NCBI GenBank assembly: GCA_044892505.1
Contig: CM097883.1
Coordinates: 232,376,001-232,440,000 of the forward strand
From: Schmidtea nova
Lineage: Eukaryota
Length of the DNA stretch: 64,000 bases
Direction: 5' to 3'
Positions 11,882-52,874 of this stretch are shown piece after piece. The first letter of the stretch is position 1; the number at the start of each line of letters is the position of its first letter. Both the position numbers and the translations under genes were made by a program. The notes under the pieces are model-generated. The model made no database searches and had not been told where the DNA came from. It saw only the letters and a list, made by a program, of their open reading frames with translations.

Positions 11882-12514
11882 TGTTCCCGATTGCACGGTG
11901 AACGGAGCCCCTTAAATCATACGTAAGTTTATACTATAAATACGGTATATAGATAATATATATATTCGCCTCCTTCCACTGATTGCACAGTGGAAGAAGC
12001 TCGACCCAAAAATTACTTCTAAAAAATATACTTGTTAGTTGTTAGTATAAACTGATACTGTTACCTCCTTCCACCGATTACACGATGGAAGAAGCTTAAT
12101 AAAAGATATATAATATATAAATATAGTCATCTCCTTCCACTGATTTCACAGTGGAAGAAGCTTGGTTAAATTCTATATTCGACAAAAATTTAAAAAATCA
12201 TATATCATAAAATATTTTATTAACAATTAACTACAATGGTCAATGACAGATAATCACAAAATTTATAAATTCAATAAAACAAAAATACTCATACCTTTCA
12301 AGTTCTGTTCAAATATCTTTCAGTATCAAATAATCACAAGATCATAAAATCACAAAGTGTTTGTTTTAAAACTTTCAAACTTTAAAAACTTTCAACTTAA
12401 AAACTTAAAAACTGCTTAAATGCTGCTTAAATTTTAACTGAATCTGGATCAGTATATATACTGATCAGATCAGATCACTGACCAATCAGCATCAATCTGA
12501 TGGTCATCAATACA
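11882..12514 (-). repeat. Candidate 5' LTR of element 1 (633 bp, TGTA...AACA)
   Basis: TGT/ACA termini; CCAAT at 12482; TATA inside a perfect palindrome GATCAGTATATATACTGATC (12447-12466); AATAAA at ~12216-12221; followed by TGG. The partner LTR is not in the window. Confidence 0.55.
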
Positions 12515-31700: not shown

Positions 31701-32206
31701 CGATTTTTTGGACGGTGCTTACCACGCTGTACTTTCTTTTTCGCTACTCTTTTCTTAATTTCGAAGAAGTGAAGAAGTTGTCACAGGTAACGTTATAACT
31801 CCTTTATAGTAGTATTTCATTAAATACATCACAACATATGTTGCAAGGTCTCTATTTTTGCTGTCGGTGAAAAATTGTTACTAGATTAACCGACGTGATT
31901 GAAAGGTCGATGAGAGATTTATGAATATCGAATATTTGAAAAAAGAGAAAATACAATTTGAAAAGTAAAGAAAACGAGATTAATTTTTGTGATTAGAATA
32001 AAAGTAAAAATAAATCGTATCCGTTGAAATAAAAGATTAAAAGGTTGAAAAGAAAGGAAAGAATTGATAAAATCCGATTGCCAATAATAAAGTCAAAATT
32101 AAAGTAAAAGGTAAAATTAAAAATTGTAATATTTTGAAATTTAGACGCAAAAAAAGTTGTCCAAAAGAAGTTGTATAATCTACGAAATAAGAAACAAGTG
32201 GAAAAT

Positions 32207-33400
32207 ATGGCTAGTAATTCAAATAATAATGATCAAATACCCATGTCTACAACTCCCACAAACAATGGCCTTGATTTTGCAAGCTGCCAGAAATTGCAAG
32301 TAGAGGGATACGGAGGAGACCCGATTGATTTTATTGATTTCATGGCGGACTACTAAATGTACGCCACAGCATACGAATGGAGCCAATCAATTATGGTACA
32401 AAGGTTACCATTATATTTGAAAGGTGCAGCAAGAGAAGCTTGGCAACAGATCGATAAAAGACTTATCACAAAGGATTGGACAAAGCTATAGGATGCATTG
32501 GCAGCCAAGTTAATCGGTGGCTATATCAAAAGAATATTGCGCCAAAAATTTACAACCGAGTGCAAAAGCCAAATGAATTGGTAAGTGAGTTTGCTTATCA
32601 TTTAAAAACTCTTGCAAAAAAAGCCTTTGAAGCGAAACCCGAACAACCTGATGTGACGAAACAAGTGAAAGAATTATTACAAAATCAATTTTTGTCAGGA
32701 GTAAAAAGGGAGATAGAAAAGGCCTTGTTATTTAGATTTTAACAATTTCGATGAATTGAATAAAAAGGTCATGAAAATTAAATTGAATCTCAAAACCACG
32801 CAACAGATATCAGAATCCTTTGCAATTGTCAATGAAACAAGAGATGAATCAGTAACTCCGGTTAGAGAGAATCATTTTGCAAAAATCAACACGTTAATCA
32901 CCAAAGTTCAGAGTGAAATTCGAGCCAAGAAAGTCGACAAACAGCCCAAATGAAGAGAGAGAAAAGCCAATTCAATGTAGTTTTTGTAAATGATTGGGAC
33001 ATCAAGTAAACCAATGTTGGTTTAAAAACAACGCTTAAAGAAGCCCAAGTCCTGTTCACGAAAAGGCATAGTAATAGTCAATGTTAGTTTCAAAATAATT
33101 TGCAATGGAGTCCAAGAAAGATGTGGCCAGATTGGTTGAAAGACAATGTCGAGAAAACTTTCAAGAGAGGGGACAACAATGATCAAAGAGCTAGTGATAA
33201 TATGCAGTACTATAATTGTGGAACGAAAGATCATATTTCACGAAATTGCTTTGCAAGATCGAGATCTCCGTCAACATCACCATCACCACAGAGAGATAGA
33301 GTAAATCTCCAAGGACAAATTCAATGTCACTCATGCAGAGGTTATGGTCACATGGCTAGATCATGACCAAAGAATAATGAAATATTTCAAAGACCTATAT
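32207..33400 (+). pseudogene. Element 2 gag (stops and frameshifts)
   Basis: EGYGGDPIDFIDFMADY*MYATAYEW..RLPLYLKGAAREAW; three knuckle remnants CSFCK*LGHQVNQC, YNCGTKDHISRNC, CHSCRGYGHMARS. Confidence 0.85.
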
Positions 33401-33834
33401 CAAAATGATAAATCAAAATTTGATAATGTGGCTTTTGTACAACCCGATGATGTCAATGAAAGAATTGAAAAAGAGATAAAACAAATGGGTAAACGATTGG
33501 ATCAATTAATGTGTAAATTTAATCAGACGAAGAAACTGATAATCATGTGATGTATGAATCGCAATCAGAAGGGTCAGAGACAGATATAATAAAGGAAGTA
33601 GTAAATGATGAATTAGAAACAGAAAAAAATAAAAATGATTATGTCGAGAATAAAAATTTTAATATAGTCAATAGTAAAAGAGACATTAAAAGTAATGACA
33701 CTGCTAAAGAAATTGAGTCAAATGCCGATGAGTATACAAAAAATAAAAAGTGTACTTGAAATGTGTGCTGATTATCATAATGAGAATTCAAAAGATAAAA
33801 CTGAAACTGAGAAAATTCTTCAGAGTGAAAACAT

Positions 33835-34060
33835 GTTTAGATTTTATTGTTATTGATATTGTTGATGAAAGCAATAATGATGTGATGTGTATTCGTTGTG
33901 AAATAAGAGAGTGCGTAAAGGAGTTTAAAATGAGATTAGAGGAGAATAGTGGAAAATGGATAAAAGAAGTAAAATTTAGAAATAGATGTTTAAATGATGA
34001 TGAAGTTTTAATAAATTGTGGACTAACACCTGAGAATTAAAATATAGTATAGATAGTATT
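33835..34060 (+). pseudogene. Element 2 ubiquitin-like domain
   Basis: FIVIDI..VMCIRCEIRECVKEFKMRLEENSG..EVKFRNRCLNDDEVLINCGL matches the Ubl pattern. Confidence 0.55.
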
Positions 34061-34899
34061 AATGATTAGAAATAATGAAGTAATAAAAGATGATTCACAA
34101 AAGATTTATAAGGAATTAAAGGATATTTTGTGTAGAGGGGATGCACATAAAATTGTTAGAAAATTAAAGTTAATAGAAGAAATTGAAATTGAGAGGGATT
34201 GTAAATTAGATATTATAGATGCAATAAGGCCATATATATATATATATATATGAAAAATGAAAATATAGAGAAAGTTTAAGAAATTTAGTACGACGATTGG
34301 GCAAGGAACTTAGAAAAACTACAGTCGAAATGATTCCGTTTACAATAGCATTAGATTACGAAGATTATGGAAAACTGAATATAAAGTAGAGCATTGGTAC
34401 ACAAAAGTTCGAAAATTAAGAAAATAGCTGCTGATAGAATAGGAAAAGATGGAATTATTATTTTTATGTTTAAAGGTATTTGTACTACAAGAGTTAGATG
34501 AAAATGGATATTTATGTTCCGATACCGGAAATGGATATTTGATAAATTATGTAACAGTGATTAAGGAACAGAAATTTGAATTAATTGATAAATCTGATGG
34601 ATCAAATACAGACATAGAAAAAGATAATGAAAATGAGATTAAAGATGACAAAGAAATAAACGAAATGGTAAATGATAATAAGGAAACCAAGCAGAATAAT
34701 AAAGATGGGTGTAAAATAACAAAAGTGCAAGAATTTGAGGAAAATAAAGGCGAAATGAATAATGAAATTAATACTAAGAAGCCTAGAACTTTATATGAAA
34801 TAAAGAAAGGTCTTGTGAGATTGGAACAAGAAGTAAATAAAACCAAAGTATTATTAAAAAGTGTGACTAAAGCAATATACCCAATGTGTGAAATTGAGA

Positions 34900-35200
34900 T
34901 CGATGTAAAATATGAATTGGGAGACATAGTAAATGAAGTAAAAAACAGAATCCCTAGTATCATGCAACGATTTGGTAAAGTTTTTCTGATAAAGAGGTCA
35001 TCGAGAAATTAACTAGAAATGAAATTACTAGAGAAGTGATATTAATGAGCTTAACTTATGTAATTTTGGAAATTGGTGCTCATAACATCATGAAATCAGA
35101 TGAATTAGAAAATAAGATAGATACTTCTGCTCGAAATATAAACACATACTTAATGAGTTGGAAAAAAAAGATTGGAGGTTGGGACAAATTGATGAAAATG
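34900..35200 (+). pseudogene. Element 2 Bcl-2-like domain
   Basis: NTYLMSWKKKIGGWDKL. Aligns ungapped over 48 aa with element 1: KS..[IL]E..I...A..I......[YW]....GGW. Confidence 0.55.
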
Positions 35201-36034
35201 TTTATAATAAATGAAAACGAAAATGACGAAGAAAATCTACCTCAAAAATCGCTAAATGTGAGAGTTAGTCCAGAAACGAGGAAGACTATTATGTTTCCCT
35301 GGGCAATCTTTATGATAATTCATTTGTGTGCAGGAATCACATAGGTAACGAGTATAAATGCTTATGATTGTTCTAAAACAGAAATGGGAATAATTTATTC
35401 GGTTATAGATATGGCAAAGTGTTCAGACGCATATCCAAGAAAATTAAAAATAGAAAATGATGTGAAATACTATGTATATCAAGAGTCTGATTTACGACGA
35501 ACACCGGTAAGAGAAAGTATGGTTAAGCGTACTGCCTTTATATTTTATTGAGCAAATGCAGCCATACTTCATTGATAAAAATATATACAATCACACTGCC
35601 AGTGGGAGTTATGCCGGAAAATTGCCTCACTGCTTTTCAAACAGGAGAATTAAAACTAAATGCAGAAATTAAATTAAAAGCAAAACGAAATCATAGAATG
35701 AGAGAAACAGTGGTCGTAAAAGGAGTAATGAAACAAGATGGAGATTGTGAAGGTGAACCATACAAAGTAGATGGAAAAATAATCAAACAATCTGTAGTAA
35801 TTGAGGAATATTTTACGGAATTGAGGGAATTTGAAGGACCTTTTGATGTTGATACGGGAAAGTTGCAGACACATCCATTTCTTAACATGAAGCAAACTAA
35901 TTGCCAAACGGGAGAGTCAATCCTTTTGTTTAATGTCAAAACCTAGGCATGTAATTTGGCGCACTTAAAAACTATGAATTTCAAAGAATTGTGCGGAGAA
36001 CAGTTTCGAGAACGACTAGACAATTTTAATACTA

Positions 36035-37737
36035 CTGTAAAATCCCGAGTATAAGCTGCAGCTAATACGTACATTAAGGCAACATTTCTGAATTGCAGCT
36101 AATATGATGTGCAGCTTATACAACTAAAAAAGAAATCAAATCGAAGATAAGATTATTTATTTCAATTTTCATCATCACACTCCTCAAAACCATCACATTT
36201 TTCATTGTCAATAAAAGTGAAATTTTCTAGTAATTCTACAATGTTTGGATCAGACTCGTTCACATTCATTTCATTTTCTTCAATTTCAAGAACAATGTTC
36301 GTCTTCACCGAATGCAACACAAAAACCATTCAAAATGGTGGAAATGTTAACATCTTCCCAAGAGGAAACAATCCATTCGAAAAAAGTATTCCAGTCAGCT
36401 GCTTTCATATTTCCGGACTTAGTATGTTTGATGTTTTCATAATCTTTAATGATCCAATCCTTCCACTTCTTGCGCAATTTTGACTTGAACGAAAGGTTAA
36501 CAGTAAGATCTAATGGCTGCACCTTTGATGTCAATCCGGCAGGTATGAAAGCTACTTTGGATTCCTTCTTAATTTTATCAAGTGTAGTACTGACAAGATG
36601 TGAGATATGCATATCAAATAAAAGCAATGATGGTACTTTTGGATCTTGGTTCCATGGTGTCTTTGGAGGTAATGTAATTCGACTCTTCCATACTTTCTTG
36701 AGCCATATCTCAAGAGTTTCATGGTTCATCCAACCAGAGCCATTAGCTGCAATAACAAGCTTTGATTCAGGAATGCAAGTCTTTGGATGTTTCTTTGTGC
36801 CCAAAATAACAAAAGGCGGAAGTTTAGTACCATCTTTGAGAACACATAGATTGACGGTAAATCGTTTTTTCTCATGTCCTGTAGTTTTAATTCGGACCTC
36901 CTTGGCACCTTTAGTCTCAATTGTGTACCCTAAAGGCATGTCACATTGAACGGACACTTCATCAAAATTACCAATTTGATTATCTGGCAAATCCTTCTTT
37001 AAATCTGCGATGGTGCTTCTAAACTTGGCCATCTGAAATTCCCAATCTTTCGGTAATTGTTGCTTCGTGGTAGGCCGTCGAACAAAAATATTCTTGCGTT
37101 TCATGAAATTATCAGTCCATTGAGAGCTCGCGACAAATCCTTCAATTTTCATCTCTTTGGCAATTACTTGTGCCTGTAAACGAATTCGAACAACCGACAC
37201 TTGAAGATCTCGTTCACGTTGAATTAGGATCCATTCGTGTAATTTCGTTTCCAATTCCGGATATCTAGCGTTACCACCACGCAATGATCTTCGATTTGGA
37301 TTCATTGCTTTGATAACAGACTCTTGGGCGATCCATCGTCGAATAACAGTTTTATTAATATCATATCGTCTTGCAACCTCCCGTATGTTTCCTAACTGAC
37401 GAGCTAATTCAATAACTTCTTTTTTCTTTGCTGAACTAAAAGATCTTCGTTGTTTCTTTTGTTTTTGTTCCAAATCGTTATCCATTTTAATCAAGGATTC
37501 AAAAAGTGCAATAAACAATATAAACGATATAAACGATTAAAACAAAATTGTTATTGTTTTTTTAATGATATTTGATATGTGTTTTTTAATGATAGGTTGC
37601 TGATTTTAAAATCAGGAGTTTCCAACGCAAATGGTGCAGCTAATACGTGCTGTGGTTTATACGACTAAAAAATACATTTTTATAAAAATGTCATCTGCAG
37701 CTAATACGCGCTGCAGCTTATACTCGGGATTTTACAG
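36035..37737 (-). mobile_element. pogo/Tigger DNA transposon, complete ends
   Basis: 28-bp perfect TIR ctgtaaaatcccgagtataagctgcagc; TA duplications at 36033-34 and 37738-39. Excision restores the env frame (FNTNYTPN). Confidence 0.95.
36286..37518 (-). CDS. pogo/Tigger transposase (CENP-B-like HTH, HTH_Tc5, DDE_1)
   Basis: RRSFSSAKKKEVIELA HTH; YPELETKLHEWI; FVASSQWTDNFMKR; catalytic NFDE, LLFD..SH, QPLD. The acidic tail appears to continue in a shifted frame. Confidence 0.92.
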   Translation of the reverse strand: MFIALFESLIKMDNDLEQKQKKQRRSFSSAKKKEVIELARQLGNIREVARRYDINKTVIRRWIAQESVIKAMNPNRRSLRGGNARYPELETKLHEWILIQRERDLQVSVVRIRLQAQVIAKEMKIEGFVASSQWTDNFMKRKNIFVRRPTTKQQLPKDWEFQMAKFRSTIADLKKDLPDNQIGNFDEVSVQCDMPLGYTIETKGAKEVRIKTTGHEKKRFTVNLCVLKDGTKLPPFVILGTKKHPKTCIPESKLVIAANGSGWMNHETLEIWLKKVWKSRITLPPKTPWNQDPKVPSLLLFDMHISHLVSTTLDKIKKESKVAFIPAGLTSKVQPLDLTVNLSFKSKLRKKWKDWIIKDYENIKHTKSGNMKAADWNTFFEWIVSSWEDVNISTILNGFCVAFGEDEHCS

Positions 37738-39269
37738 TAATTATACCCCAAATATAACAGTTGGATCAACGCCGGTATGGATGAAGAAAACAGCAAAGGT
37801 TTTGTTGTCGACCATGCCAACAGATAGCATGCGCTTCATAAAAAAAGAAAGCACCAGTAAATGTGGTCAAATGGTATATACAACAAATTATAAAGGCGTT
37901 TATGTGTCCAAAATGATGGTGCACAAAGCTTAAACTAGAATACCTTCGACACGTATAAAATTAACTCACTACTTTTATAATAAAATTGATTTTTTGTTTC
38001 ATTTTAGCCAGAACGTCATGGAGAATATATATCAGGAAATGATCCTTATTGATTGTAAATTAAATAAAGAGATATTCCGAAATCGGATGGCAATGGCAAT
38101 TACAAACACAAATTTAGTTGCGCCTATGTTGATATCAGAAAATAGACTATTTGCTAGAATCTTAGGAGAAGCTTTGTATATCTACAGATACAAAGAAGTA
38201 ACAGTAAAAATAATGAAATATGAAAAAAGCACAAACGAATTACCAGTGAGTATGAACGGAAAAATGCGGTTTATGGAACCAATAACCAGGATACCATTGG
38301 AGGAGCACGTTAAACCAAATGTTTTTCAATGCAATAGGCTACTTGCTCCATTATACCGATTAGCACTAGATCATTGGATTGCGTTACCAGGTCACCGAGG
38401 AGTGAATACACCAGATAAATTAGAATTGATCACTCTAGAATGCTTGACAAATTTCATCATTAAATAAAATGGCACAAATGGGTTTTTATGCAAGTGATGA
38501 TATTGAAGAAGCCCAAAGGAATTTATTATTCTCTTCAAAGAAAGAGAGAATAATTTCAGAAATGATTGACACCATATTACCAAACGGAGAGGATAAAGTA
38601 AATTATGAATATTTATTATCACCTTATCATTTCAAAAGAGCCAAGTACAAAACGATGGAAAAGATTTGGGGGAAATTCATGTTCCTAGGATAAGCGTGTG
38701 CTGATTTAATTGGAATTTTTGTGGTCGCAGTAGCGTTAAGGGTAATTATATCTCAAGTACTATCTGCTCATAGAATATACGTAATATCGGGATGGTCATG
38801 GAAAATGATCATTAGTTGCATTCCATTTTTGGCAAAATGTTTTATTACACATCATCAATATAAAGAAATGGCAAGTGTGAAAGCACAATTGAAAACGATC
38901 AAAAGTGCTAAAAATCCTTATGTGAATTTGGTGACAGAAATAATAACAACAAGGATGGTAATGACAATAATAAAATTGAATCAAAACACTTTCAAAAAAC
39001 AAGAGTTGAAAGCGAAATAAAGCCAGAATCAACATTTTTACTTGAACCAATACCAAAGCTGAGTGGGATTGATACTTTTACAAAGTGGTATACACCAACA
39101 TTTGTATTAACAGCACCCATGTATCCAAGTGAAAGATTAAAGGAGATTAAACCAGTAGGTCACAGCAATTTTTATTAGAAAATATTGTGCCAACGAGTGC
39201 GGAAATTGAACGAAAAAACGTACTTGGACTACCATGTAGTTATGCGCTGATGACCATGGTGGAGAAGCC

Positions 39270-39365
39270 AAGCAACCTCGGATAAATATACAGTTTAATG
39301 AAAGAACTGTCGAAGCCTTGTTGGATTCAGGTTCAAGTCACAAAATAGTGTCGGACAAAATGTTA
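39270..39365 (+). pseudogene. Element 2 aspartic protease, N-terminal half
   Basis: PRINIQFNERTVEALLDSGSSHKIVSDKML. Confidence 0.85.
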
Positions 39366-39427
39366 AAGCGTAACTGTGGTGGGGGTTTTATTTTGTCGGG
39401 CGGGCATGTCGGAGTGTATGGGAAAAG

Positions 39428-39817
39428 TTGAAAATTGTTCATAATAGCGATATAGATTATGAAGAACTGATAATCAAGTCTGTAGATGAATTGGATACTT
39501 TAATCAATACTGATTGCAACGAAAAGCCTTCTCAATGTTCAAATTGTGAAACAGTTTTAAATAACTCATTTGAACTTTTAGTTCATTCATATACTCATGT
39601 TGAACATAGTAAAGAAAATGAATTGTTTCAAATTTGCCCCAACTGTAGTAGATTATTTTTCAAAAAGAAAAAAAACAGTAAAAGCTATTTCAAAGATCAT
39701 TATAATTCTGAACATCTTAAAAAGTCACCTCCTCAATATGATGCGGAATGGATGGAAAACTGCTATGACTTTTCGCAAGAGGATTCACAAAATTCTTGGT
39801 CTCCAATTAATAAATAA
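39428..39817 (+). pseudogene. C2H2 zinc-finger protein fragment (host-like DNA inside element 2)
   Basis: CSNC-x12-HSYTH canonical finger plus a degenerate CPNC...HYNSEH finger. Confidence 0.65.
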
Positions 39818-40347
39818 AAACATTAATTGAAATCTATCTTTTGTTTGTTAGTTTGATTTCGTTAGTATTTCGTAATTGAATATGTGATTTCGAATACAAT
39901 GTAAAGCATCTTGATATATAAAAAACAGCTCATGTGCATGTTTGTAATTTCTATTAGAATAGTTATGTACATGATGATAAATATTGCTTTAAGTACGCGC
40001 GACTCGTTGTGTCTTGACATTAGTTTTCGATATTTTATCATTCTACAACTTTTGTATTGAAGCAGATTATATGTAATTTTGATTTTGCAAATATGTTTAA
40101 ATGTCGCTATTAAATAACTCTGTACAATTTTTTTATTATGATTTGTTGATAAAAAATATTTACATTATAAAAGATATATTAGATATTAATTATCGAATTT
40201 TTTTAATTATGAAGGTTGTTTATATATTCAAGAATTGTAAAGGAGTTGTTTTTAAAAAATATAATTTTTGAAATTGGTTAATGATAGTTAAATGGTTTTA
40301 AAGAAAGTACTGTTTGATAAATTACGTTTATTTCACAATTACCGAAT

Positions 40348-40605
40348 ATGGATGTACAATCAAATTCCTATGTCAGCAATTTCTTAATAACATGTTATTC
40401 TTTACTAAATAATTATTCATCATTTTACGAAGATAAATTGACAAAACTAGAAGATGATGAAATGTTTTTGATCGCACAGTTAAATGCAATCGAAACTAAA
40501 TTAGAATCGGCAGATAGATTAAAGAGCGATAATATAGTTCCTACTGTAACTAAAGAGGAAGTCACCAAAGAAACGATTAACCTGAAAGCGTACAAGTGGA
40601 AATAA
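40348..40605 (+). pseudogene. WASHC3: WASH complex subunit 3 (CCDC53)-like 5' fragment, apparently continuing at 44186-44254
   Basis: YVSNFLITCYSLLNNYSSFYEDKLTKL...LNAIETKLES resembles CCDC53 FLNQF...FLNRFS..CEEKL..L...LNILDAKLSS. Downstream ISKHPKDKKHF resembles KDPRYARY. Confidence 0.6.
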
Positions 40606-40618
40606 TTCATAAGGGAGA

Positions 40619-40727
40619 TGTGAGATAATAAGACAATTTAAATATTTATTCAGTCAATAAATCTACTTATTTAAACAACTTTATTTTCTTTTATAAATCA
40701 TTATTTTAAATTATTCTTCTTTATACA
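40619..40727 (-). repeat. Element 3 3' LTR
   Basis: Identical to 44077-44185. Confidence 0.97.
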
Positions 40728-41611
40728 TCTCCCCGAGATTCTAACAAATCTTCATTCCTGTGCCTCAAGTCAGCTACATGACGCGGCATTGCCACGGTTC
40801 CGTAATCGACGATTGCTTTATGCGGAGACAGCAGCTTCATGATTCTTCCTCTCATCCAGGAAGATGTACATGGTTGATTTTGCGCGGGTTTCACCCACAC
40901 CTTGTCGTTAATCTGAAAGCCATTGTCTATTTGTTGAGCCGTTCTTTTCGTTTCATTAAATCGAAGTCTTAGGTCATAAGCGTAAATGCCTTTTATCGGA
41001 GGTCTGGAAGAACCATTTACTGGTGTATTATTGTACCAGTAAATTGCTTCTTGCACTGAGCATTCCGATCGCGTGACTGCAGCTTTTATTGTTTTATGGT
41101 TCCTCTCAATAATGCCGTTGCCTGCTGGTCTATTAGCGGATCTGAATTCAGTTCTAATTCTCCACCTTTTCATTAGAGAAGTGAAAGTTTCTGACCTAAA
41201 CGATAAGTAATTGTCCAACAGAAGCTCGTCAGGAGGTCCTCTTTCATAAAATACCTGTTCCAACTGTTTGCAAATTTCGTCTGCGCTTTCGTTTCGTATT
41301 TCTCGCCAAATCGCAAATCGAGAAGGCCCGCAATCTATGATTGTTAAAAATTTTCTTTGATGTAATTTAGTCACATCGATAGCTAATCGTTTCCAAGAAT
41401 CTTTTACCTCTAATTGCCCTTTGCTGATCTTAACCGGATGAGGGTCTATTGATTGACATTTGTCACACTTTTCGACTATCTCTTTTAACTCATTTTGAGA
41501 AAGGTTAATTCCTGCTTCCTCGGTCAAGAACCTCAACCGATCTCCTCCGAAATGGCTTAATTTGTGTATTTCAACTGCGTTCTTGATGGGATCTTCACCC
41601 GGGTCTAGCAA
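40721..41611 (-). CDS. Element 3 integrase (in frame with RT/RH but behind one TGA at 41639-41)
   Basis: HKLSHFG...CDKC zinc-binding motif; LAIDV, LLLDN, GIIERNH catalytic DDE; stop lies inside the 3' LTR. Confidence 0.9.
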   Translation of the reverse strand: MLDPGEDPIKNAVEIHKLSHFGGDRLRFLTEEAGINLSQNELKEIVEKCDKCQSIDPHPVKISKGQLEVKDSWKRLAIDVTKLHQRKFLTIIDCGPSRFAIWREIRNESADEICKQLEQVFYERGPPDELLLDNYLSFRSETFTSLMKRWRIRTEFRSANRPAGNGIIERNHKTIKAAVTRSECSVQEAIYWYNNTPVNGSSRPPIKGIYAYDLRLRFNETKRTAQQIDNGFQINDKVWVKPAQNQPCTSSWMRGRIMKLLSPHKAIVDYGTVAMPRHVADLRHRNEDLLESRGDV

Positions 41612-41638
41612 CGCCGTATTACACGTATGTTTCGTAAT

Positions 41639-43399
41639 TCAATTTGAGGGAATTCTGGTTAATATGTCGGATTTATTTTTGTCTGTTGGAACGTATTCTA
41701 TTTCAGCCTTTATCTCATATTCAATAATTAATTCTTTAATTATGTTGAGCCTTCTTTTTACTAACATTTCTGAGGAAGCTTTAGTTGAAACCTTTCTCTC
41801 GGATGTCAAGGCATTATGTACCCAACTTACCACGGATTTGTTATCCGACATGATCTTAACAGTCTTTAAATTCCATTTGATGCATAAGTTGATGCCTTTA
41901 ACGATCGCCTCAAGTTCGCACAGGTTAATGTGCCTAACGTCCTTCTCCTTTCTCAACCAGCATGCGTCTTCCATAATATTTCCGTCGATTTCTAGCGCTG
42001 CTCCTATGGCGATAGAGCTGGCATCACACCATAAAATATTTCCTCTGTCCATTGGTGCTTTCCATATACCATGAGCTGGATCATTCTTTTCAACCTCCTT
42101 TATTAACCATTTAACTTTGTTTAGTAATTGAACGTCGATTGGCCGGTCCCATTCTCCTTCGCTTAATCGTTTGAGATAAGAGCACGCGGGTCGTAACCAA
42201 CCTGCAACTGGAAGAATTCCGGTTAATTGACCGCATAACGAATACAGTTCTCGTCTGTCCATTCTCTTTTCTTCAAATTCGTACCGGATGACATTGGCTC
42301 GGTTCCATTTTAATAAGTTATCCTCAATATGAACTGATAATCCAAGTATTCTTAGAGCTTTTGTTGATGAGGGGCGTTCAATTTCTTTCGTCATCAAGTT
42401 AAATTTTCCTAGCCAGGCTTTTACTTCTTCAGCTGGGACAACTTCTTCGTCGATAAAAATATCGTCAATGTACGCACTGGCTCCTTGTTTTATTCTGTCA
42501 TTTAAACCCAACACGTAGTTAACGATCTCTGTCATAATACTGGGAGCGATATTGATTCCGAAGCCTAGTCTTGTCAATGCATATCGCCTTCCGTTTACAA
42601 TGCATGACTGGTACTTCCACATACTCTCATCAACCCGGATTTGCATGTATGCATCAGATAAATCCAAAATCGCTATTTTCTTTCCCTTCTTTCTCCAATC
42701 TCTTATTGTTTCATTGCAAACTACTGCTTCTCCACTATAGACGTCTAAATAATGATTTAAAGCTCTAAAATCGAACACTGGCCGTATTTTGCTCTTGTTC
42801 TTTTGCATAACCGGAAATAAAGTTACTGCTCCAACAGGCTTACCGAACCGGTTTTCGTCATATTCGACTAACCATCCATTTTTGACCCACTGCTCGATGA
42901 CTTTGAGAGCCTGGCCTGCTTTGGGCTTATCTGGATCTAACTTGGAATATCGATCTGACATTGATACTGGGGGTTCTGTGTTCCAATTCCATGATACCAT
43001 CCATTCTTTGTTGAACGTTGCTTCGAAGTTCTTCCTTTGAATTAAAAAACTCTGAGCTTCGTTTCCGTTTACAGCCATAAAACATTTCAATTCACATCCG
43101 AATCTGACGTCTTCACTGATTGTCACTCCTCCTAGTGCTATAATGGCGTTCATACCTAATATGACATCATATCCCGCTATCATTTTTCTAGAAATAAAAC
43201 AGTCAATGATAAAGTACTTTCCTTCTAATTCGATTTCTGCCTTGCTCTGGCTCACTGGCAGTATTGATCCATCTGCTAGGAACACTTGAGCGTTGGGTGA
43301 TGTGATGGCTTCTCCGCGTATAATTGTTGTCGAGCAGCCGGAATCTATAAGACAAAGACGTTTTGATCCATTTATGGAAAGGAGTCTTTCTTTTAACAT
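41639..43399 (-). CDS. Element 3 protease-RT-RNase H
   Basis: LIDSGC; RPVFDFRALN; LDLSDAYMQI; RLGFG; YIDD; WCDASSIAIG; ELEA; SDN. Confidence 0.95.
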   Translation of the reverse strand: MLKERLLSINGSKRLCLIDSGCSTTIIRGEAITSPNAQVFLADGSILPVSQSKAEIELEGKYFIIDCFISRKMIAGYDVILGMNAIIALGGVTISEDVRFGCELKCFMAVNGNEAQSFLIQRKNFEATFNKEWMVSWNWNTEPPVSMSDRYSKLDPDKPKAGQALKVIEQWVKNGWLVEYDENRFGKPVGAVTLFPVMQKNKSKIRPVFDFRALNHYLDVYSGEAVVCNETIRDWRKKGKKIAILDLSDAYMQIRVDESMWKYQSCIVNGRRYALTRLGFGINIAPSIMTEIVNYVLGLNDRIKQGASAYIDDIFIDEEVVPAEEVKAWLGKFNLMTKEIERPSSTKALRILGLSVHIEDNLLKWNRANVIRYEFEEKRMDRRELYSLCGQLTGILPVAGWLRPACSYLKRLSEGEWDRPIDVQLLNKVKWLIKEVEKNDPAHGIWKAPMDRGNILWCDASSIAIGAALEIDGNIMEDACWLRKEKDVRHINLCELEAIVKGINLCIKWNLKTVKIMSDNKSVVSWVHNALTSERKVSTKASSEMLVKRRLNIIKELIIEYEIKAEIEYVPTDKNKSDILTRIPSN

Positions 43400-44064
43400 C
43401 TTTTTGGGATCGAGAGAGACTCCTGAATATTCTCGATCCCGTTGTCTTTTCCCGATTTACAATATCGGGATTGGTGTCCAAGCATTTCACACCTAGAACA
43501 TTGAATTTTTTTCTTGTTCGGACAGTTACGGGCAAAATGATTTTCATTACAAATATAACATTGCATCTTCTTTATCTTCGCCACAAAGGCAGACTGATGT
43601 CCATGAGTTAGATTCAGTCGTGAAACGATGTCACCGATTGCGTCGATCGTCGTTGATCCTTGTCGTCTCACCTCAGCTGCGATTTCTACTGGCAAGGATT
43701 TGATTATAATGTTTATTAAGAGATCTCCAGCGTTACAAGCCAGATTCTTCATTTCTGATAAATGAATGTTAATATTGTCCCCGATCTGGAATCTCTTGTT
43801 TAACAACTTGGAAAAACATGCTTCTGGGGGATCGCTGAAAGCTCGTATCAATGATATTTTAATTTCTTCATAACTAATATCTTCGTTTTTCGCTGCTTCC
43901 TTCAAGGTGATAAATGCCTTCCCCTTCATGACAGCAGGTAAAATTTCTTTTTTTCCATTGAATTTGTGAAGCTTGCATATTAATTCAAACTTATCGAACC
44001 ATTCATCGATTTTCACGGTTTCGCCGTCAAAACATTCGATTGCATTCAATATATCTTTTATCAT
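43393..44064 (-). CDS. Element 3 Gag
   Basis: FDGETVKIDEWFDKFELIC; knuckles CYICNENHFARNC and CSRCEMLGHQSRYC; ATG immediately after the PBS. Confidence 0.92.
   Translation of the reverse strand: MIKDILNAIECFDGETVKIDEWFDKFELICKLHKFNGKKEILPAVMKGKAFITLKEAAKNEDISYEEIKISLIRAFSDPPEACFSKLLNKRFQIGDNINIHLSEMKNLACNAGDLLINIIIKSLPVEIAAEVRRQGSTTIDAIGDIVSRLNLTHGHQSAFVAKIKKMQCYICNENHFARNCPNKKKIQCSRCEMLGHQSRYCKSGKDNGIENIQESLSIPKRC
43402..43408 (-). promoter_or_regulatory. -1 ribosomal frameshift heptamer C_CCA_AAA
   Basis: Correctly phased X_XXY_YYZ in the gag frame two codons before the stop; the -1 frame enters pol (PKKMLKER). Confidence 0.75.
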
Positions 44065-44076
44065 GCCCGGATAGCT
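44065..44076 (-). promoter_or_regulatory. Atypical PBS AGCTATCCGGGC, complementary to nt 1-12 of tRNA-Lys(UUU)
   Basis: Plus strand reads GCCCGGATAGCT, the known 5' end of metazoan tRNA-Lys3. It abuts the LTR CA and there is no TGG-type PBS. Confidence 0.75.
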
Positions 44077-44185
44077 TGTGAGATAATAAGACAATTTAAA
44101 TATTTATTCAGTCAATAAATCTACTTATTTAAACAACTTTATTTTCTTTTATAAATCATTATTTTAAATTATTCTTCTTTATACA
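44077..44185 (-). repeat. Element 3 5' LTR
   Basis: Identical to 40619-40727. Confidence 0.97.
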
Positions 44186-44254
44186 GGAGATTTAACAACA
44201 GACAATTTCATTGAAATTTCAAAGCATCCTAAGGATAAAAAACATTTTTATATA

Positions 44255-47200
44255 GAAAAATATGGAATTGATCCAAATTCTTTTGCAATAATAACCACCA
44301 AAGAAACCAACGGGTAAAAAGATCAGATCGATGTCACAAGACTGTTTAGATGTAATTGGAAAATTGGAAGCTAAATTAATTATCGGTGATAAATAAATAA
44401 TTCATAATGTAAGTGATAAGGAAACATTCCTTAATATGTTTAGTTGGTATGGATATTATGCGACAATTAAAAGGAATTGCTCTTGATCTAACTGTAGGAA
44501 AGTTAATAAAGGAATAACCCATAAAATTCCAAACAAATAGGTCTTTCTAAATCAAGCAGTGGAATTGCCAGCGAGAAGCGAAGTGATATGTTATGGTAAA
44601 GTAACAGATGCATCAAATGACGAATGTATATTCGAGCCAAATCAAAAGCTAGTAGAAAAATATGATATACTAATTTGTGATGAGATAGTAAAAATCAAGG
44701 ATCCAACTGTGCTAGCAAGAATAGCATATCATAGCTCAAAATCCATTCAAATAAAACCCAAAACTAAGTTGGGAAGGTAACAAAATTTAGAATAGAAAAG
44801 GACAGAAAAGTTACTGAGGAACATTAAAATCTATAAAAAATCCCAAGTTATTAGCAACGATTTAACTGAGGTACAAAAACGAGAATTCGCGGCGTTACTG
44901 AGAAGATACGACAACATGTTTGCAAGGCACGAATATGATTTGGGACTTACTCAAGTGATCGAACAAGAGATACCACTACTCGATGAAACTCCTATTAAAT
45001 TACGACCGTATAGAATTCCATATATACATCAAAAAGAAAGCTATCGATAAATCAAAGCAATAAAAGAATTTAAAATAATACGAGATAGTTCATCACCATT
45101 CTCATCGTCAATAGTCATTGTCAAAAAACTCGGTGATTTAAGATTTTTTGTTGACCACCGAAAATTAAATCAAGTCAGGAGAAAAGATGCTTTTCCAATT
45201 CCAGTTCCAGAAGAAATGTTTGATCAAATGGGTGAAGTGAAATTCTTCACAGTAATTTACCTAAATAAAGGATATAATCAGTTTATAGTAAAAGAAGAAG
45301 ATAGATGAAAAACAGCATTTTCAGACGACAAAGGTTTGTATGAATTCTATGTATTATCATTTGGCTTAACAAGAGCACCAGCCACGTTCCAAAGAGGTAT
45401 GAATTTTGTCTTGCGTGGCATTCCACATGCATTTGTTTATATTGATGACATAATAATATGTTCAAGTAGTTTTCAGGAACACTTAAAAGATGTAGAAACA
45501 TTATTCAAACGATTATTAGTGGCAAATTTGAAAATAAAACCCTCGAAATGCGAATGGGGTAAATCAGAAGTAATTTATGTTGGTCATATAATTTCACGCA
45601 ATGGATTACAACAAAACCCAGAAAATGTAGAGAAAATTAAAAATTGCCCAATTCCTAAAGATGTAGATCAAGTTCGACAATTTCTTGGGTTAGCTAGTTA
45701 TTAAAGAAAATTCACTAAAAATTTTCCACGTGGCACAACTTTTGAATATGCTATTAAAGAAACAAGCTCAATTTAAATAGGCAAAACCTCATAAGGAAGC
45801 ATTTGATTTGCTCAAAGAAAGTCTAATTAAAAAGCCGATTTTGAGATGCCCAAATTTTAAAATACCATTTATCTTAATGACGGACGCAAGTAATTTTGCT
45901 TTAGGGGCCGTACTAAGACAAAGGGTTGAAGGCAATAAAGATCACGTTATTGCCTATGCTAGTAGAACATTGAAACCCCATGATAAGAATTATTCTACCA
46001 TTGAAAAGGAGACGTTAGCACTAGTTTATTGAATAATCACATTCAGATAATATCTAATTGGTAGAAAATTTATTGTATTTACAGATCATAATCCAATACA
46101 ATGGCTCATGAAGAATTGAGATTCAGCAAGTAGGCTGATCAGGCGGTCAATTGCTCTACAGGAATACGATTTTTAAATTAAATATCGCACAGGTAAATCA
46201 AATGCAAATGTGGATACCTTATCGATAATTGCTGAAGAAAATTATAATAATCAGAATGAAACAAATTATAATGACACAATATTTATGGCAAATAAAACCG
46301 CAAAGAATATGAAGTAATTACAATATGATCAAGAAAATGATGATGAATTAAATCAAATACGGAAAATTGCAGTCACAATAAAAAAAGAGAGCGACTGGAA
46401 ACACATAGTTGATGAAAAGCATAAATATATTATCCATGACGGTCTGTTAAAATGTGTTAAAAATGAAAATTTGTTAATTATTTTTCCAACAAAACATCGA
46501 AAAGCATTATTGTTGTTATACCATGACGGGGCGTTAGAAGGACATTTATCAGCTCGAAAGACATTATCAAGATTGAAATTGAAATGTTATTGGGACACCA
46601 TGGAAAAAATTGTTAAACAATGGTGCCAATCCTGTGGCGTGTGTATGACCAGGCGAAATACAGGAAAGAAAATAAAAGTATCATTGAAGCTTATGCCTGG
46701 AACAGGTGCTCCAATGGAAATGACAGTAATGGACATTGTCGGTCCACTACCGGAAACAATTAATTAAGTATTGTTAGAAGCAATTAAATTCAACTCTTCT
46801 TCCATTATTATTTATTAAATTCTATCACAATTTCAAAATGTTCATGTTTAACTGTGAATATTAAAACACTGAGGCATTTGTAAGTCTAATATTAATGAGG
46901 ATATTGGCCATTAATATATATATATATATATATATAATTATATTAATATAAAATATATTAAATGTTACTCGTTAAATTAATTAATTAAATATTTTTTAAT
47001 TTAAAAGGAGTTTTGAAACTCCTTATAAGTATATCATTTTATATTGTGATTATCTAACTAAATGGCCAGAAACCTATGCAATGCAGAATCAAAAAGCAAA
47101 AACAGTTAAAACATATTTGTAGAAAATAAAATCTTTCGATATGGAGCACCAAAGAAGTTACTTACAGATAAAAGAAAAAACTTTCAAAGCGAGTTATTTA

Positions 47201-47720
47201 GTTCAATAACGGAATTATTCGGAATACTAAAACTCAGTACATCACCGTAACATCCGAAACAGATAGCTTAGTTGAAAGGTTCAAGGGAACATTAATCAAT
47301 ATAATATCATCTTACGTAAATAGAAAGCAAACCGATTGGGATCTATTCATTAAACCATGTTTATTCGCATATCGAAATGCAGTAAATAAAAGTACTGGTG
47401 AAACACCTTTCTATCTTATGTATTTACGACGGAATAATATGCCAATAGATTTAAATTTCAAGCACCTATATTGCAATACATGGATGTATCTAACTATAAA
47501 GTTGTTATGCAAGAAAGATTACAGTTAGTATGGGTTCAAGCCGGACTCAAAATAAAACAACAACAAGAAAGTTATAAAGAGTGTTACGACAAAAGAGCAC
47601 ATGCTCATGGTATTGAAGTAGGAAATTTAGTATATGTAAACAAACCAGAGCCAGCAAAGTTTTTATAACTAAAGCTACAAAGACTATTTAAAGGACCATA
47701 TTTCGTGTGTGATACAACTG
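44255..47720 (+). pseudogene. Element 2 pol: protease C-half, RT, RNase H, integrase (decayed; AT-rich insert at ~46765-47020)
   Basis: QDCLDVIGKLEAKL..LVGMDIM; FVDHRKLN; KTAF; FGLTRAPATFQR; YIDD; TDASNFALGAVL; YASRTL; H...GH...CQSC; MDIVGPLP; LVERF. Confidence 0.92.
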
Positions 47721-47849
47721 AAACTAATTTAAAACTACGGCCACAAAATAATAAAAAGGCCGGAACAATTATCATTCATGCTAATATATGCAAAAATGTG
47801 CCAGCTATGGATGACAATAAATATCAGCTAAGATCAAAAAAGAAAAAGT

Positions 47850-49059
47850 CGCAAGAATAAACGATAATCAAGCAAAGAGGTTCAAAAAACTCCGCATCAT
47901 TGGGATATTTCAATAAAGTATTACTGATTGCGACAGTAAAGATAATGCAATAAAAAGAGTTTCACTTTTAGAAAAATTGGATATATTGAAACATGTACCC
48001 AAATTGTATGGGTCTACCATTGTGAACCGAGGGACGAAATAAAAATAAATTATTTATTAAATTATTTTGATTCACCAATAAAGTTGAATTTTAACAACAG
48101 TATGTATGTTGCGTATGATTTAAAAATGAATTACAAATATCCCTGGTTTATAACCCAAACAGCAATATCAAGAAAATAATACAAAAATACAACATCAGAT
48201 TGAAATTGAAATTTGGACAAAAATATTAAATAGTAAAATATCAATAGAACCATTAATAAAAGGTGTCAATGTATATTGGGAACCCCATGAATCTCAACAA
48301 GTGAAAATTATCTTTCAAAAGTACACAATTGATACGCTAAATCTCGAGAAACCTTATGTACATTATGTTAATTTAGAATTGCACAAAACATATAATATCG
48401 TCATTCATTATTACGAAAAAGCATTACGAGAAAATGGTACTGATATTAATAATCAATGGTTCAAGATTTATTCCAGTCAACAATCTGTGACATTGATGAA
48501 TGAAGCAAATCGAGTCATCTTTGAATATAAAAATCAGAAATTAAACGCATACCGACAAGCGGAAGTTAATAAAAAGTCGAAATTCATTACTGTGGGAAAA
48601 TTCAGGCAATATTAACAAGTAACATTTCACATCAAATTTTAAATTTTCAAAGATTAAGATCTATATCGAATTCATAATTTGTTATGATGAAAAAATCAAA
48701 TACTATCGCCTAAATTTTCATTCCAAACAATGGCAGATCACTCTTGTCGAAAACAAAGTTGTCCGAGTTTCATATAACATTACCGATATTGATGATTCAA
48801 AAAACAATTATCTATATAAAAATATGACTAAAGAATTTCAAACGACAATCATTCCTTATATCTATGATGTGACAATTCTAAGAAACGCATCATCTTCAAC
48901 TAATGACAGTGCAAAAACATGTATCATTTTATCAACTATTATTATTAATGCAACACCATTTATCATTGTTATTCTTCTCTCGCTACTGATTTGCTTTCAA
49001 AGAATAAACAATCGGACACAAAGACCGTGGATTGTCTACGAGGAGACGTTTGTATAGTG
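47850..49059 (+). pseudogene. Decayed second membrane-protein ORF downstream of integrase
   Basis: ORF pieces 48301-48615 and 48824-49057 with NGT/NAS sequons and C-terminal TM CIILSTIIINATPFIIVILLSLLICF; followed by purine tract GAGGAGACG and TGTATAG (possible 3' LTR start at 49051). Confidence 0.5.
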
Positions 49060-51513
49060 AAAAATTTAATTTATCATGCAATTATAATAATATATTAGTA
49101 CTGTAATAGTATGAACTTTTTTAATCCATATTTATGTGATTTATTGAAAAATTTGCGCTTTCGATCGGAAACGGATTTGATTGGTTGAATAAAAATAGAT
49201 TTGAGAATATAAGGGAATCCCTAAATTATTAAATTAGAATAAAATTCAAAATTTAAATAGGTAATTAATTTTGTTAATATTTATTATTTATACCGTTATC
49301 AGCCAGGATAGAATCATTAGGGTACTCCACCTTGGCGATAACGTCAAATTTTAAAATAAAACAAAATTTTAAATTATAAATATTTCATTGATAGAACAAA
49401 TTCAATGGATCCCAGACATTTATGAAGCCTACCTCAAATTACATCGAAATCACATGTGGCAAGGTCATTTTAAATTGAAGACAAAGCCGCCTTATCCAAT
49501 AGGTACCGTGCCTATGGCCTACGAACTTTAAGGGGGCCTACGAAGAAAAAATAAAATACATACATATATACAAAGAAAAACAAAATTATTTTAGTTAAAA
49601 AAAATTATTTAAATTCAAATATAAAAAACGAAAATAAATAATTTCAAATATAAAAACAGAACTGAAAAATTTTAAATAATAATTTATTTTCGCCATTTTT
49701 CTTTGGCAAAATCTTCAATAATGTCGTCAAAATTCATATCACGAGTAAGATTACTCTCAATGCAAAGAACAGCCAATGATGAGAGGCGATCTTGATTCAT
49801 AGTTGAACGAATATAATTTTTTACATCCTTCAATTGGAAAATGATCGTTCTCCTTCTGCATTTGCTCCAATAATAGAGAGATAAATTCGAAATGCAATAT
49901 TTACATTTGGAAAACTTGTCTGTAATTTGTCTTGAATTTGTGATTTTATTAAATCTGCTACAGATTTCTTATCTTTATACATTGAAGAAAATATTATAAA
50001 CTCATCTACAAATTTTTCTTCCAAATCTGATGAATATGTGTTGACTAAATCTTTAGCTTTACATCTAGCTTCTTCGTTGGATAAAGATTTATCTCCAATA
50101 AAACTGAAGGTATTGTATAATGTATTGTATGCTCCTCGTCATTATTTCATTTCAGTTCATAGCCTATCTACAATAGGGTAAAAAGAATGTATTCGAAACG
50201 TATCCCTAGCAGACAATTCTGAATCTTCTTCTGTTACTTCATCGAAAAATTGTTTTCCGCCTTCGTTGCACACAATCCTTGTAATCAACATTTGTCATTT
50301 CTTTAGCACTTTTTTCAAAATCATTAAATTTGTTCCGAATATCTGACAAGAACGTTAGAAGACCATCATATAATTTCACAATCGTACAGAATTCAATTCC
50401 CGGCTCTTGTACTGCTTTATTTACTTTATCAATATTATTTAACAGATTTGCCCAAATAACAGTCATTAATGCCGTTTCTAAATTGTTCAGTTTTTTTAAC
50501 AAACATTTTGCTTCGTGAACTGTTGTTGGTGGTTGTCGATCACATTCTGAAATATTAGTTAGTGCTGCTCGTATTTGATTAAAATTTTTACTTAACGCAT
50601 TAGTAGCTTCGTAACGTGAAGACCATTTTGTTTGTGATAAGCTTTTAACAGAGTGGACATTTCCAGTCACATTCAATTTTAATTTTGCCCATCTTTCCGG
50701 TGACGCTGAGAAAAATGTAAATAGAGATTGTAAAAACCCGAAAAAGCTTACTGCAGCAAAACAACTTTCTGCTGACTTTACCACTACCAAATTGAGGCTA
50801 TGTGCGGCACATATTGCCAAAGGGTTTATTTCCCTAAATCTCGCTTGGACTCCGGAATATATTTCGCTCATATTACTTGCATTATCGTACGATTGTGATC
50901 TACAGTTGAGAATATCTATGCCATGATCAGCAAGCACTAGTTATATAACATCAAAAAGATATTTTCGATCATGCTGTTCGATAGGAATGAACATTAAGAA
51001 TCTCTCGACCACTTGTCCGTCTTTTAACACATAGCGAATAATTACAGTAAGCTGATCTGTGTGACTCATATCAGGAGTAGAATCAATGCTAATACCATAA
51101 TATTTGGCTTCCTTAATTTCAGAAGCGATTTGCTTTAAAACTTTTGATCCCAATAATTTGATAAAATTTTCATAGATGTTGGCAGAAAGGTAAGAAACGT
51201 TTCCTCTACCTCTATTTCCGTGTTTTCGAATGTGTTCTTTAAGAAATGGATCGAACTCAGACAAAAGGTCGATGCATCCAAGAAAATTTCCATTTTGAGA
51301 ATTATTATGCAGTTGATTATCTCCACGAAAGCCAATCCCTTTTCTGCAAGGAGCTTCACTACCGCAACTACTCTTTTTAACAAATTAATCCAGTATTTAG
51401 TGACATGTTCCTTTTCATTTTCCAGCTGTTTATCAATTCTAGAGGATTTTTGACATATGAGCATTGCAGATAAAGCAGCGAAATGGTCCTTTGATTTTTC
51501 ATGTGAAGGTATT

Positions 51514-52874
51514 GGTCGCGCCCGCTTATTAAAATATTTAAAAATTAATTAAATTAAAATAAAAATAATTAATTGGGTGCTTGATTGCTGTGAGAGATTG
51601 TGGAGCGAGCCTGAAGCCGTTAGACGGTCTTATCGAAATCTATATAAATCTTATATAATACTAATTTATATTACTAAATATATTCTGATTATGCTAAAAT
51701 GAAATCCTTTGAATCTCAAAATATTATATGGCATTACAGTCCATTAGAATCGACAGAAGAGAAATCAATTCACGATAATATTAATTTAAATAGACAAAGT
51801 CTAGAGAAAGGTCTACGAAATAGACAAAATCAATATGTTTTGGTTGACAGGGGAATATTAAGAAATCCTGGTGTTGAACCTTACAATTCTAATAATGCCA
51901 ATAATAATTGCGATGGAAAAGACATGCCGGTAAAATATGATAAGGCAAATTACATCGCGTCTGTGTGCGCGACAGAAATGCTGGTGTTGTGGTCGGGTGC
52001 GCACACAGACGCGAGTTGTTCAATTTTGATTTTATCTGGGTTTTTTCTTGTGGTGATTGAAAGTTGGATTTGAAAAGGATTTTGGAAATTTTCGAATTTA
52101 TAAAACTTTTAGAATATTGATTTTGTTTATCTGAATTTGTGAATTATTTTTTGGGCGAACTTTGAATTTAATAATGTCTGATTGTGATTTGGCTTTTTAG
52201 CTTTTTAATTGGAAGTTTTTGGTATTTGGAATTTAAAAGTGGCTTTTGAGTTTCGTTTTCGTCAACTAATTGGGATGAAAGATGTTTCGAATTTGGAATT
52301 GTAATTTTGTGGAATAAAATAGAATCTTCGTGACTTGGAATTGTTGATTTGAATTTTAAATATGAATAGTGAAATGTCTTTGGGCTCGTTTGTTTTCGAT
52401 CGTGTTATGACAATTTTTTCACCCGAAGGCAGATTATTTCAGGTCGACTATGCATTTTAAGCGATTGCGTTGGATGGATTACTTTCTGTTGGTGTTCAAG
52501 GTTGCGTTAGGACCGAAATGATTTCTGATTGCGGATCGCAAGTATGCTGTGCACAAATGGAAGCTGCACGATTTAAATGCGAAATGTCCTGTGACATGAC
52601 TTGTCGAAGTATTGCCGATATTAATCAATTGTATTTTCAATCAGCTGCAAGGATGTCATTAGGCTGTTCAATGATCGCATTTTCTTATGATAAGGAGATG
52701 GATAAGCCACTGTTATTCAAAACCGATCCCAGTGGATTTGTAGCTGGTCGTCGAGCTGTTGCGGTCGGTGGAAAACAGTTGGAAGCTAAAAGCTATGAGG
52801 AAAAGAAGCTTCGTAAAAATTCAGAATTTTCAAAAAGCGATGAGGAAAGCAATCGGAGCTGGTCGCGGTGAACC
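51514..52874. mobile_element. 1361-bp insertion with 7-bp target duplication AGGTATT carrying a PSMA6 fragment
   Basis: AGGTATT at 51507-13 and 52875-81; removal restores hAT sequence IRIPSHEKSKDH. Confidence 0.8.
52374..52871 (+). pseudogene. PSMA6: Proteasome subunit alpha-6 pseudogene fragment (internal deletion, truncated)
   Basis: FDRVMTIFSPEGRLFQVDYAF*; CRSIADINQLYFQSAARMSLGCSMI; LFKTDPSGFVAGRRAVAVGGKQLEAKSYEEKKLRK. Confidence 0.85.

Follow-up and report, generated by a model that had tools for sequence, protein, structure and literature searches.

A decayed gag-env-pol retroelement of Schmidtea nova and its relatives with a predicted class III glycoprotein and pol in one reading frame

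Layout and decay of the element

We analysed a stretch of 64,000 bp of the Schmidtea nova genome (hereafter the window; NCBI GenBank assembly GCA_044892505.1, contig CM097883.1, positions 232,376,001 to 232,440,000), which contains parts of two env-bearing long terminal repeat (LTR) retroelements, here called element 1 and element 2. Our main subject is element 2, located at 31-50 kb on the + strand, where a six-frame reading recovers fragments only. Between 32207 and 49055 (+), Pfam families follow one another in the order CCHC knuckles, five fragments of PF24664 (the Monjiviricetes fusion glycoprotein; E 1e-19 to 2e-3), aspartic protease motif, RVT_1, RT_RNaseH and Integrase_H2C2. Together with mapping from sibling copies, this bears out the order gag, ubiquitin-like (Ubl), Bcl-2-like, signal, glycoprotein (GP), transmembrane segment (TM), protease (PR), reverse transcriptase (RT), RNase H (RH) and integrase (IN) proposed in a preliminary description of this DNA.

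Domain borders in the window were mapped from an unbroken sibling. The 5' part begins with a remnant of primer-binding site (PBS) and leader (31890..31908, +), recognized from the sibling PBS, the genomic tRNA-Trp 3' end and the window letters, and of the tRNA-Trp type in siblings; the 5' LTR is missing. There follow a broken gag with a capsid-like region and CCHC knuckles (32207..33387, +; zf-CCHC E 2.7e-6, Retrotrans_gag E 2e-8 in sibling L007), two broken Ubl domains (33817..34520, +), a Bcl-2-like domain (34809..35221, +), a predicted internal signal sequence 1 (35288..35356, +), the predicted class III fusion glycoprotein ectodomain of chuvirus G / herpes glycoprotein B (gB) type (35357..38675, +) and transmembrane anchor 1 (TM1; 38676..38780, +), after which a tail and the protease continue in frame in siblings. 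Signal 1 and TM1 were both called by hydropathy and mapped from the sibling. The protease starts at 39270, ~490 nt past TM1 (the preliminary estimate was ~450 nt), and is split in two pieces (39270-39373 and 44303-44475, +; gag-asp_proteas E 0.001 in the window, RVP E 1.6e-7 in a sibling). Broken RT and RNase H (45120..46167, +; RVT_1 E 4e-17, RT_RNaseH_2 E 5e-28) precede the integrase with its H2C2, core and C-terminal parts (46483..47803, +; Integrase_H2C2 E 5e-16, rve in siblings). The same open reading frame (ORF), ORF1, then encodes a predicted second membrane protein (47909..49055, +), recognized by hydropathy and sequons, with a signal 2 partly lost in the window, a glycan-rich ectodomain that may be FN3-like, TM2, a short tail and the stop. 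Further downstream lies the remnant of ORF2 (49373..54387, +), cut off and lacking the 3' LTR; no LTR of element 2 was found within the 64-kb window. In siblings, ORF2 has 493 aa (L011:6483-7961, -) and a weak match to DEDD exonucleases (RNase_T E 0.006).

Aligned to the unbroken sibling over 2661 codons, the window copy proves heavily decayed, with 28 stops and 25 indels that shift the frame. It also carries four nested insertions: a pogo/Tigger-like DNA transposon that splits the glycoprotein and is bounded by terminal inverted repeats and a TA target duplication (36035..37737, -; DDE_1 E 1.5e-27, HTH_Tnp_Tc5), a 1.36-kb repeat that itself holds a 3.57-kb LTR element and splits the protease (39374..44302), 260 bp in the integrase (46765-47024) and 4.5 kb in ORF2 (49465-53961). 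The preliminary description had placed the element at 32171..47720, where it indeed lies, but it runs beyond these limits, from the primer-site remnant at ~31890 to the ORF end at ~49055 and the ORF2 remnant up to 54387, and the four unrelated insertions had gone unnamed.

Sibling copies carry env and pol in one reading frame

Searches of the genome with the env-PR and RT regions of the window gave 40 scored matches each, with 91-93% identity excluding the window itself; the 1591 (env-PR) and 1265 (RT) first-look candidates are not copy numbers. Four loci were common to the two match lists, with the env-PR and RT matches 616 bp apart, and all four were fetched (L004, L007, L010 and L013). These siblings are ~90% identical to the window copy. 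Three of them have very long open frames: 2803 codons in L007, starting ahead of the gag Met and reaching the integrase core; 2997 codons in L013, from inside gag to beyond the integrase; and 2731 codons in L004, downstream of a single stop in gag. Each of these frames contains CCHC, GP, PR, RT, RH and IN by Pfam. Thus, env and pol share one frame in natural copies, which answers a question that the decayed window copy had left open. Two of the four siblings, L004 (16.3 kb) and L010 (17.1 kb), are complete; their LTRs of 762/763 bp are 100% identical, and both display TGT..ACA LTR ends, 4-bp target-site duplications (TSDs) and a purine tract. The sibling primer site matches the 3' end of tRNA-Trp genes of the same genome.

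These copies also decide whether the gag-env and pol halves could stem from unrelated elements that chance or nested insertion brought together. This idea could draw on the 4.9-kb insertion that separates env from RT in the window copy and on element 1, which has no RT, RH or IN. However, once the insertions are set aside, the window is collinear with its siblings across the env-pol junction, dS to the sibling is alike on both sides of it (0.16-0.22) and the same order is common to distant relatives. Since env, PR and RT lie in one open frame in siblings, the idea fails: the frames of L004, L007 and L013 rule out a chance junction, and we grant it practically no probability.

Several observations concern the surroundings of the siblings. 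Two of the four copies are cut off beside DNA with a double jelly-roll match (E 0.004) and ORFs of ~1400 aa (L008, L014 and L015), which we take to be Polinton-like. Upstream of L007, L009:3960-9658 contains a BIR-RING (IAP-like) ORF and coiled-coil ORFs. As these resemble the accessory genes of element 1, a third Burro-type element probably hosts this sibling copy. The genome also contains 1984 occurrences of a 21-nt tRNA-Trp 3'-end motif, all on one strand (G000:C3 from 128.02 Mb; L038-L040); the first 100 of those listed form a tandem array with a ~282-bp period, and ARAGORN calls tRNA-Trp at the locus tested.

A predicted class III fusogen and other domains of the polyprotein

A structural model of the sibling glycoprotein, built from 115 sequences, reached a pLDDT of 90.6. 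The sequence itself matches PF24664 with E 2e-82, in line with the chuvirus-type glycoprotein proposed in the preliminary description. Against the PDB, the model retrieved herpes gB (best E 6.5e-15, TM-score ~0.4), and every row listed was gB; against viral models (BFVD), chuvirus-type glycoproteins were best (E 1e-41). Because of these two sets of matches we assign the modelled envelope protein to the class III fusogens (chuvirus G / herpes gB) and not to the F-type. Its ectodomain appears to be constrained, with dN/dS of 0.05-0.19 between L007 and the three other siblings, although these values are based on only 2-5 replacement changes each.

Given this layout, the order might be real and the glycoprotein nonetheless a non-functional passenger in a family that moves only within cells, since an in-frame env would stay open merely because pol lies downstream. 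We consider this improbable. An open frame alone needs no low dN/dS such as that measured among siblings, the class III fold of the model is complete, cysteines are kept across the 115 aligned glycoproteins, and the glycoprotein has been retained over lineages in which it is just 27-42% alike.

A representative glycoprotein search gave 1432 matches (E <= 0.001), 150 of them listed. At least 10 database proteins have the glycoprotein ahead of RT in a single chain (27-42% glycoprotein identity). A glycoprotein query against proteins of 1541-4906 aa gave eight matches, five with RT, RH and IN after the glycoprotein and three with protease only. In a tree of 70 glycoproteins (including 44 of the 87 stand-alone proteins and leaving out of the count P0090, whose row is due to an overlap artefact), all 22 element-type sequences, classed as such by us (18 chains of at least 1000 aa and four shorter pieces), formed one clade apart from the 48 others (FastTree support 0.96). 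P0102, the only match with DUF5641, which we take to be a BEL/Pao-type domain, falls outside this clade. Some distant relatives (P0003, P0004, P0006, P0008 and P0034) apparently have 2-3 aspartic-protease-like domains per ORF, located after env, before RT and after IN.

The domain ahead of signal 1 is weakly recognized by sequence search alone (Pfam Bcl-2 E 0.022). Its sibling model has a pLDDT of 75 from only six sequences, and the top 33 rows of a fold search with this model (VIA) were Bcl-2-fold proteins (best Z 13.3, rmsd 3.1 over 142 residues); as modelled, it is a Bcl-2 fold. For the segments between gag and this domain, the evidence of Ubl identity is suggestive, not strong: a profile of six Ubl segments from both families matched mostly ubiquitin folds in the PDB (ubiquilin UBL E 0.004, then ISG15, NEDD8 and elongin B), whereas single-sequence Pfam Ubl matches had only E 0.19. 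Both domain calls of the preliminary description thus stand, at these strengths. The nearest solved structure to the RT is that of Ty3 (E 2e-83), followed by caulimovirus (8e-50) and foamy virus (5e-29); with the gypsy-type pol domains, this agrees with the Ty3/gypsy identity initially suggested. The ~120-aa region between PR and RT, where a dUTPase-like domain might be expected, was not named by Pfam and PDB sequence searches.

A proposed tethered polyprotein with a predicted second membrane protein

Hydropathy along ORF1 revealed the order signal 1, glycoprotein ectodomain, TM1, pol, signal 2, glycan-rich ectodomain and TM2. We favour, with a probability of about 0.88, the reading in which element 2 belongs, as a decayed copy, to a Ty3/gypsy family that is probably close to Smed_errantivirus_1 and has Gag, Ubl, Bcl-2, class III glycoprotein and pol in one frame in its less damaged members, and in which this family would work through a tethered polyprotein. 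From the hydropathy pattern and by analogy with viral polyproteins, one chain of ~3,250 aa would be threaded through the endoplasmic reticulum membrane. The Gag-Ubl-Bcl2 portion would remain cytosolic, anchored via the internal signal 1, and signal peptidase would free the glycoprotein into the lumen. TM1 would bring the chain back to the cytosol, so that PR-RT-RH-IN would initially be tethered beneath the envelope protein, and a further surface glycoprotein would arise from signal 2 and TM2. Trimming of the cytosolic parts would fall to the protease that the element encodes. Such tethering might gather capsid, enzymes and fusogen at the same membrane, with no need for a matrix protein or spliced env, resulting in enveloped particles that would move from cell to cell, while the Bcl-2 domain would likely keep the producing cell alive.

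Several points weigh against this picture. In none of the four siblings does ORF1 run unbroken over its whole length, gag Met to final stop: L004 is interrupted by one stop and L010 by one stop and one frameshift, L007 is cut in the integrase and L013 is without the gag start. The full length of ORF1 is thus only an estimate. The signal and TM calls come from hydropathy alone, a search of the glycoprotein for a furin-type R-x-K/R-R site found none, and the ~82% identity to Smed_errantivirus_1 given below is a hand count over 251 residues.

The predicted membrane protein after the integrase is recurrent. Among 11 post-integrase regions, eight have an early and a late hydrophobic segment; in the remaining three, only the late TM exceeds the threshold (L020), no such segment is present (P0006) or the chain stops just after IN (P0046). 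In the element 2 family the ectodomain has eight sequons in 345 aa. It found no match in Pfam or PDB sequence searches; its Atlas matches were all FN3, with a score of 0.83 only, and we treat the FN3-like nature as a lead only. The ectodomains of relatives did not align with one another, with the exception of P0003/P0004. How errantiviruses with gB alone enter cells is described as unknown in PMC13524379, since herpes gB requires partner glycoproteins; for such a lone gB-type fusogen, the predicted membrane protein after the integrase is a candidate partner that can be tested.

Element 1 and a mixed pool of pol-less and pol-bearing copies

Element 1 occupies the left end of the window. The first 2257 codons of its ORF (3..6773, -) encode gag, Ubl repeats, a Bcl-2-like domain, signal and glycoprotein and continue left of the window; its 5' LTR (9935..12846, -) has 2912 bp and is identical to the 3' LTR (L002:5478-8389). 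The whole element spans 25.4 kb, with an ORF of ~4140 codons (gag, GP, PR, ankyrin and TM) followed by a RING-zf-TRAF-MATH ORF. Its glycoprotein is 33-37% identical to the window pieces of element 2, and the family link between the two elements proposed at the outset holds. Its 5' leader, the interval between LTR and gag, contains tandem arrays of 45/91-nt and 41-nt units (window 7508-8542).

We looked for RT, RH and IN after env across the full ORF and found none. The preliminary description had regarded such a lack as a sign that the two halves of element 2 were unrelated. The lack is real, but it is misleading as evidence on element 2: element 1 lacks pol through a family-wide deletion, and the pol-bearing copies of the giant Burro-type family to which it belongs have pol in frame after env. 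Among 20 close copies fetched, 17 are without pol at the same place, one has pol in frame and two depart from the element sequence. The deletion spans 3018 nt, is in frame and has short microhomology at its ends; in 3 of the 17 pol-less copies its junction is 15 nt shorter. At least 42 copies share the main deleted junction, which has 42 exact matches in the genome, and the exact pattern of one pol-bearing copy occurs four times. At least 19 pol-bearing copies of this family at >=93% were found among the matches listed, and 10 of 17 fetched have an open frame of ~2920-2955 codons from the glycoprotein to the stop. Both pol-bearing copies scanned (L020 and L045) have the order GP-PR-RT-RH-IN-ankyrin. 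The pool comprises window 3-12846 with L001-L002, and L016-L035 and L041-L056.

The deletion also bears on how the proteins are made. The single ORF might be real and Gag, Env and Pol come mostly from differently spliced RNAs, the tethered polyprotein being a minor product; as a matter of general knowledge, a 1:1:1 output is unusual among retroelements. Nevertheless, the alternating signal and TM segments, which fit co-translational processing, are conserved in distant relatives, and the microhomology and lack of an AG acceptor end make the pol deletion unlike a retro-copied splice. Predominant splicing appears unlikely to us, if the most serious of the alternatives to the tethered polyprotein.

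Pol-less and pol-bearing copies were intermixed in three segment trees, whose topologies differ between segments; label changes numbered 6, 10 and 13, versus means of 5.5, 10.8 and 10.9 after shuffling (for the upstream segment, 11 of 35 rows were dropped by an alignment-length filter). The intermixing and the differing topologies point to recombination between the two kinds of copies and hence make their co-packaging likely. Selection on the pol-less copies' own proteins was also considered. dN/dS is very low (0.06 for GP-C and 0.02 for PR), but this is no proof of such selection because, with the two kinds intermixed, the values are not assignable to pol-less copies. With such a recombining pool it can be asked how Gag and Pol are kept in balance in elements with a single ORF.

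These two leads could be combined in a scheme that we regard as speculative and somewhat doubtful. Each polyprotein would provide two surface proteins, one being the class III fusogen ahead of pol and the other a glycan-rich, FN3-like type I partner after the integrase, acting in attachment or as a regulator; and the pol-less copies of the element 1 family, outnumbering the pol-bearing ones and co-packaged with them, would supply extra Gag and Env, replacing frameshift or splicing in setting the Gag:Pol ratio. The literature searched contained no mention of either the post-integrase membrane protein or pol-less env-bearing copies, although the supplements of the original Burro description (Nature 2018) and of Sacco et al. 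2022 may hold one.

Relation to known elements

The preliminary description implied that the layout was new. The gag-env-pol layout of element 2 is real but already known: planarian Burro elements carry env in frame between gag and pol (PMC6431247), and GAG-ENV-POL errantiviruses with gB-type env occur in Nematoda, Bryozoa and Platyhelminthes (PMC13524379). Gene order by itself therefore adds nothing beyond these papers; our additions are the LTR/PBS anatomy of the family, structural models that support the Bcl-2 and class III assignments, and the two leads above.

The closest known element, Smed_errantivirus_1, has the same gene order and gB-type env and is multi-copy and ~15-17 kb long (PMC13524379). 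Its 251-residue ENV fragment (supplementary file 3 of that paper) has ~206 of 251 residues (~82%) identical to L007; the element 2 family is a diverged family in a different genome. PMC13524379 lists no LTR or PBS for the Smed elements, whereas in the element 2 family LTRs of 762 bp and a primer site for tRNA-Trp are clear. The terms 'single ORF', 'polyprotein', 'in-frame' and 'fibronectin' were all absent when the main text of that paper was searched for them.

The single-ORF, in-frame gag-env-pol of Burro (PMC6431247) is matched by L007, L013 and L004 and, in the element 1 family, by L020 and L045. Its Ubl/SUMO-like and BCL2-like domains ahead of env are likewise matched by the element 2 family. 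Burro / GYPSM1 fits the element 1 family closely (25.4 kb, ankyrin, TRAF/MATH ORF and an ORF of ~5,100 codons with pol). Unlike the giant Burro, the element 2 family is compact (16.3-17.1 kb) and has no ankyrin, MATH or BIR match. PMC6431247 likened the Burro env to gypsy Env and mononegavirus glycoproteins, whereas our model is class III (gB/chuvirus) and not F-type. Another Burro trait in the same paper, a dUTPase-like domain located between PR and RT, was not confirmed in the element 2 family.

As in Ty3/gypsy elements (Metaviridae), the element 2 family has the PR-RT-RH-IN order and a gypsy-type RT. The TG..CA LTRs, TSD, tRNA PBS and polypurine tract of that group are present in 2 of 4 siblings, the window copy retaining a PBS remnant only. 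Classical insect errantiviruses differ in having an F-type env in a separate ORF after pol. Anakin elements, with a captured chuvirus glycoprotein (PMC7642597, PMC10084718, PMC13524379), share the glycoprotein family PF24664, but their host is BEL/Pao, whereas the element 2 family is gypsy-type throughout, without BEL/Pao Pfam families. A precedent for element 1 is found in wheat, where RLG_Quinta, a pol-less partner that keeps gag, is cross-mobilised by the autonomous family RLG_Cereba (PMC11302176). Quinta, however, is an old separate family, while the pol-less copies of the element 1 type have retained gag, env, PR and cargo and fall among the pol-bearing ones in trees.

Other elements and repeats in the window

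The LTR element nested in the protease insertion (40619-44185, -) is very small and young, with 3.57 kb, identical 109-bp LTRs and a 5-bp target duplication, and encodes gag, PR-RT-RH and IN in three frames. The 1.36-kb repeat around it (39374-40618 and 44186-44302) has 673 first-look candidates in the genome, a zinc-finger-like frame and a coiled-coil piece that matches CCDC53 (E 2e-5). At its insertion site the host protease has lost 15 nt, and no target duplication was seen. Within the 4.5-kb insertion in ORF2, a proteasome-subunit fragment (52461-52868, +; Pfam E 5e-15) belongs to a high-copy repeat (at least 40 scored matches, 83-95%) and adjoins a DUF4371 frame on the opposite strand, which we take to be hAT-like. 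Given this neighbourhood, the fragment may be a piece of a host gene carried by a DNA transposon. Finally, a 327-aa frame at 55785-56768 (-) matches GIY-YIG endonucleases (E 2e-6) and is presumably a Penelope-like remnant.

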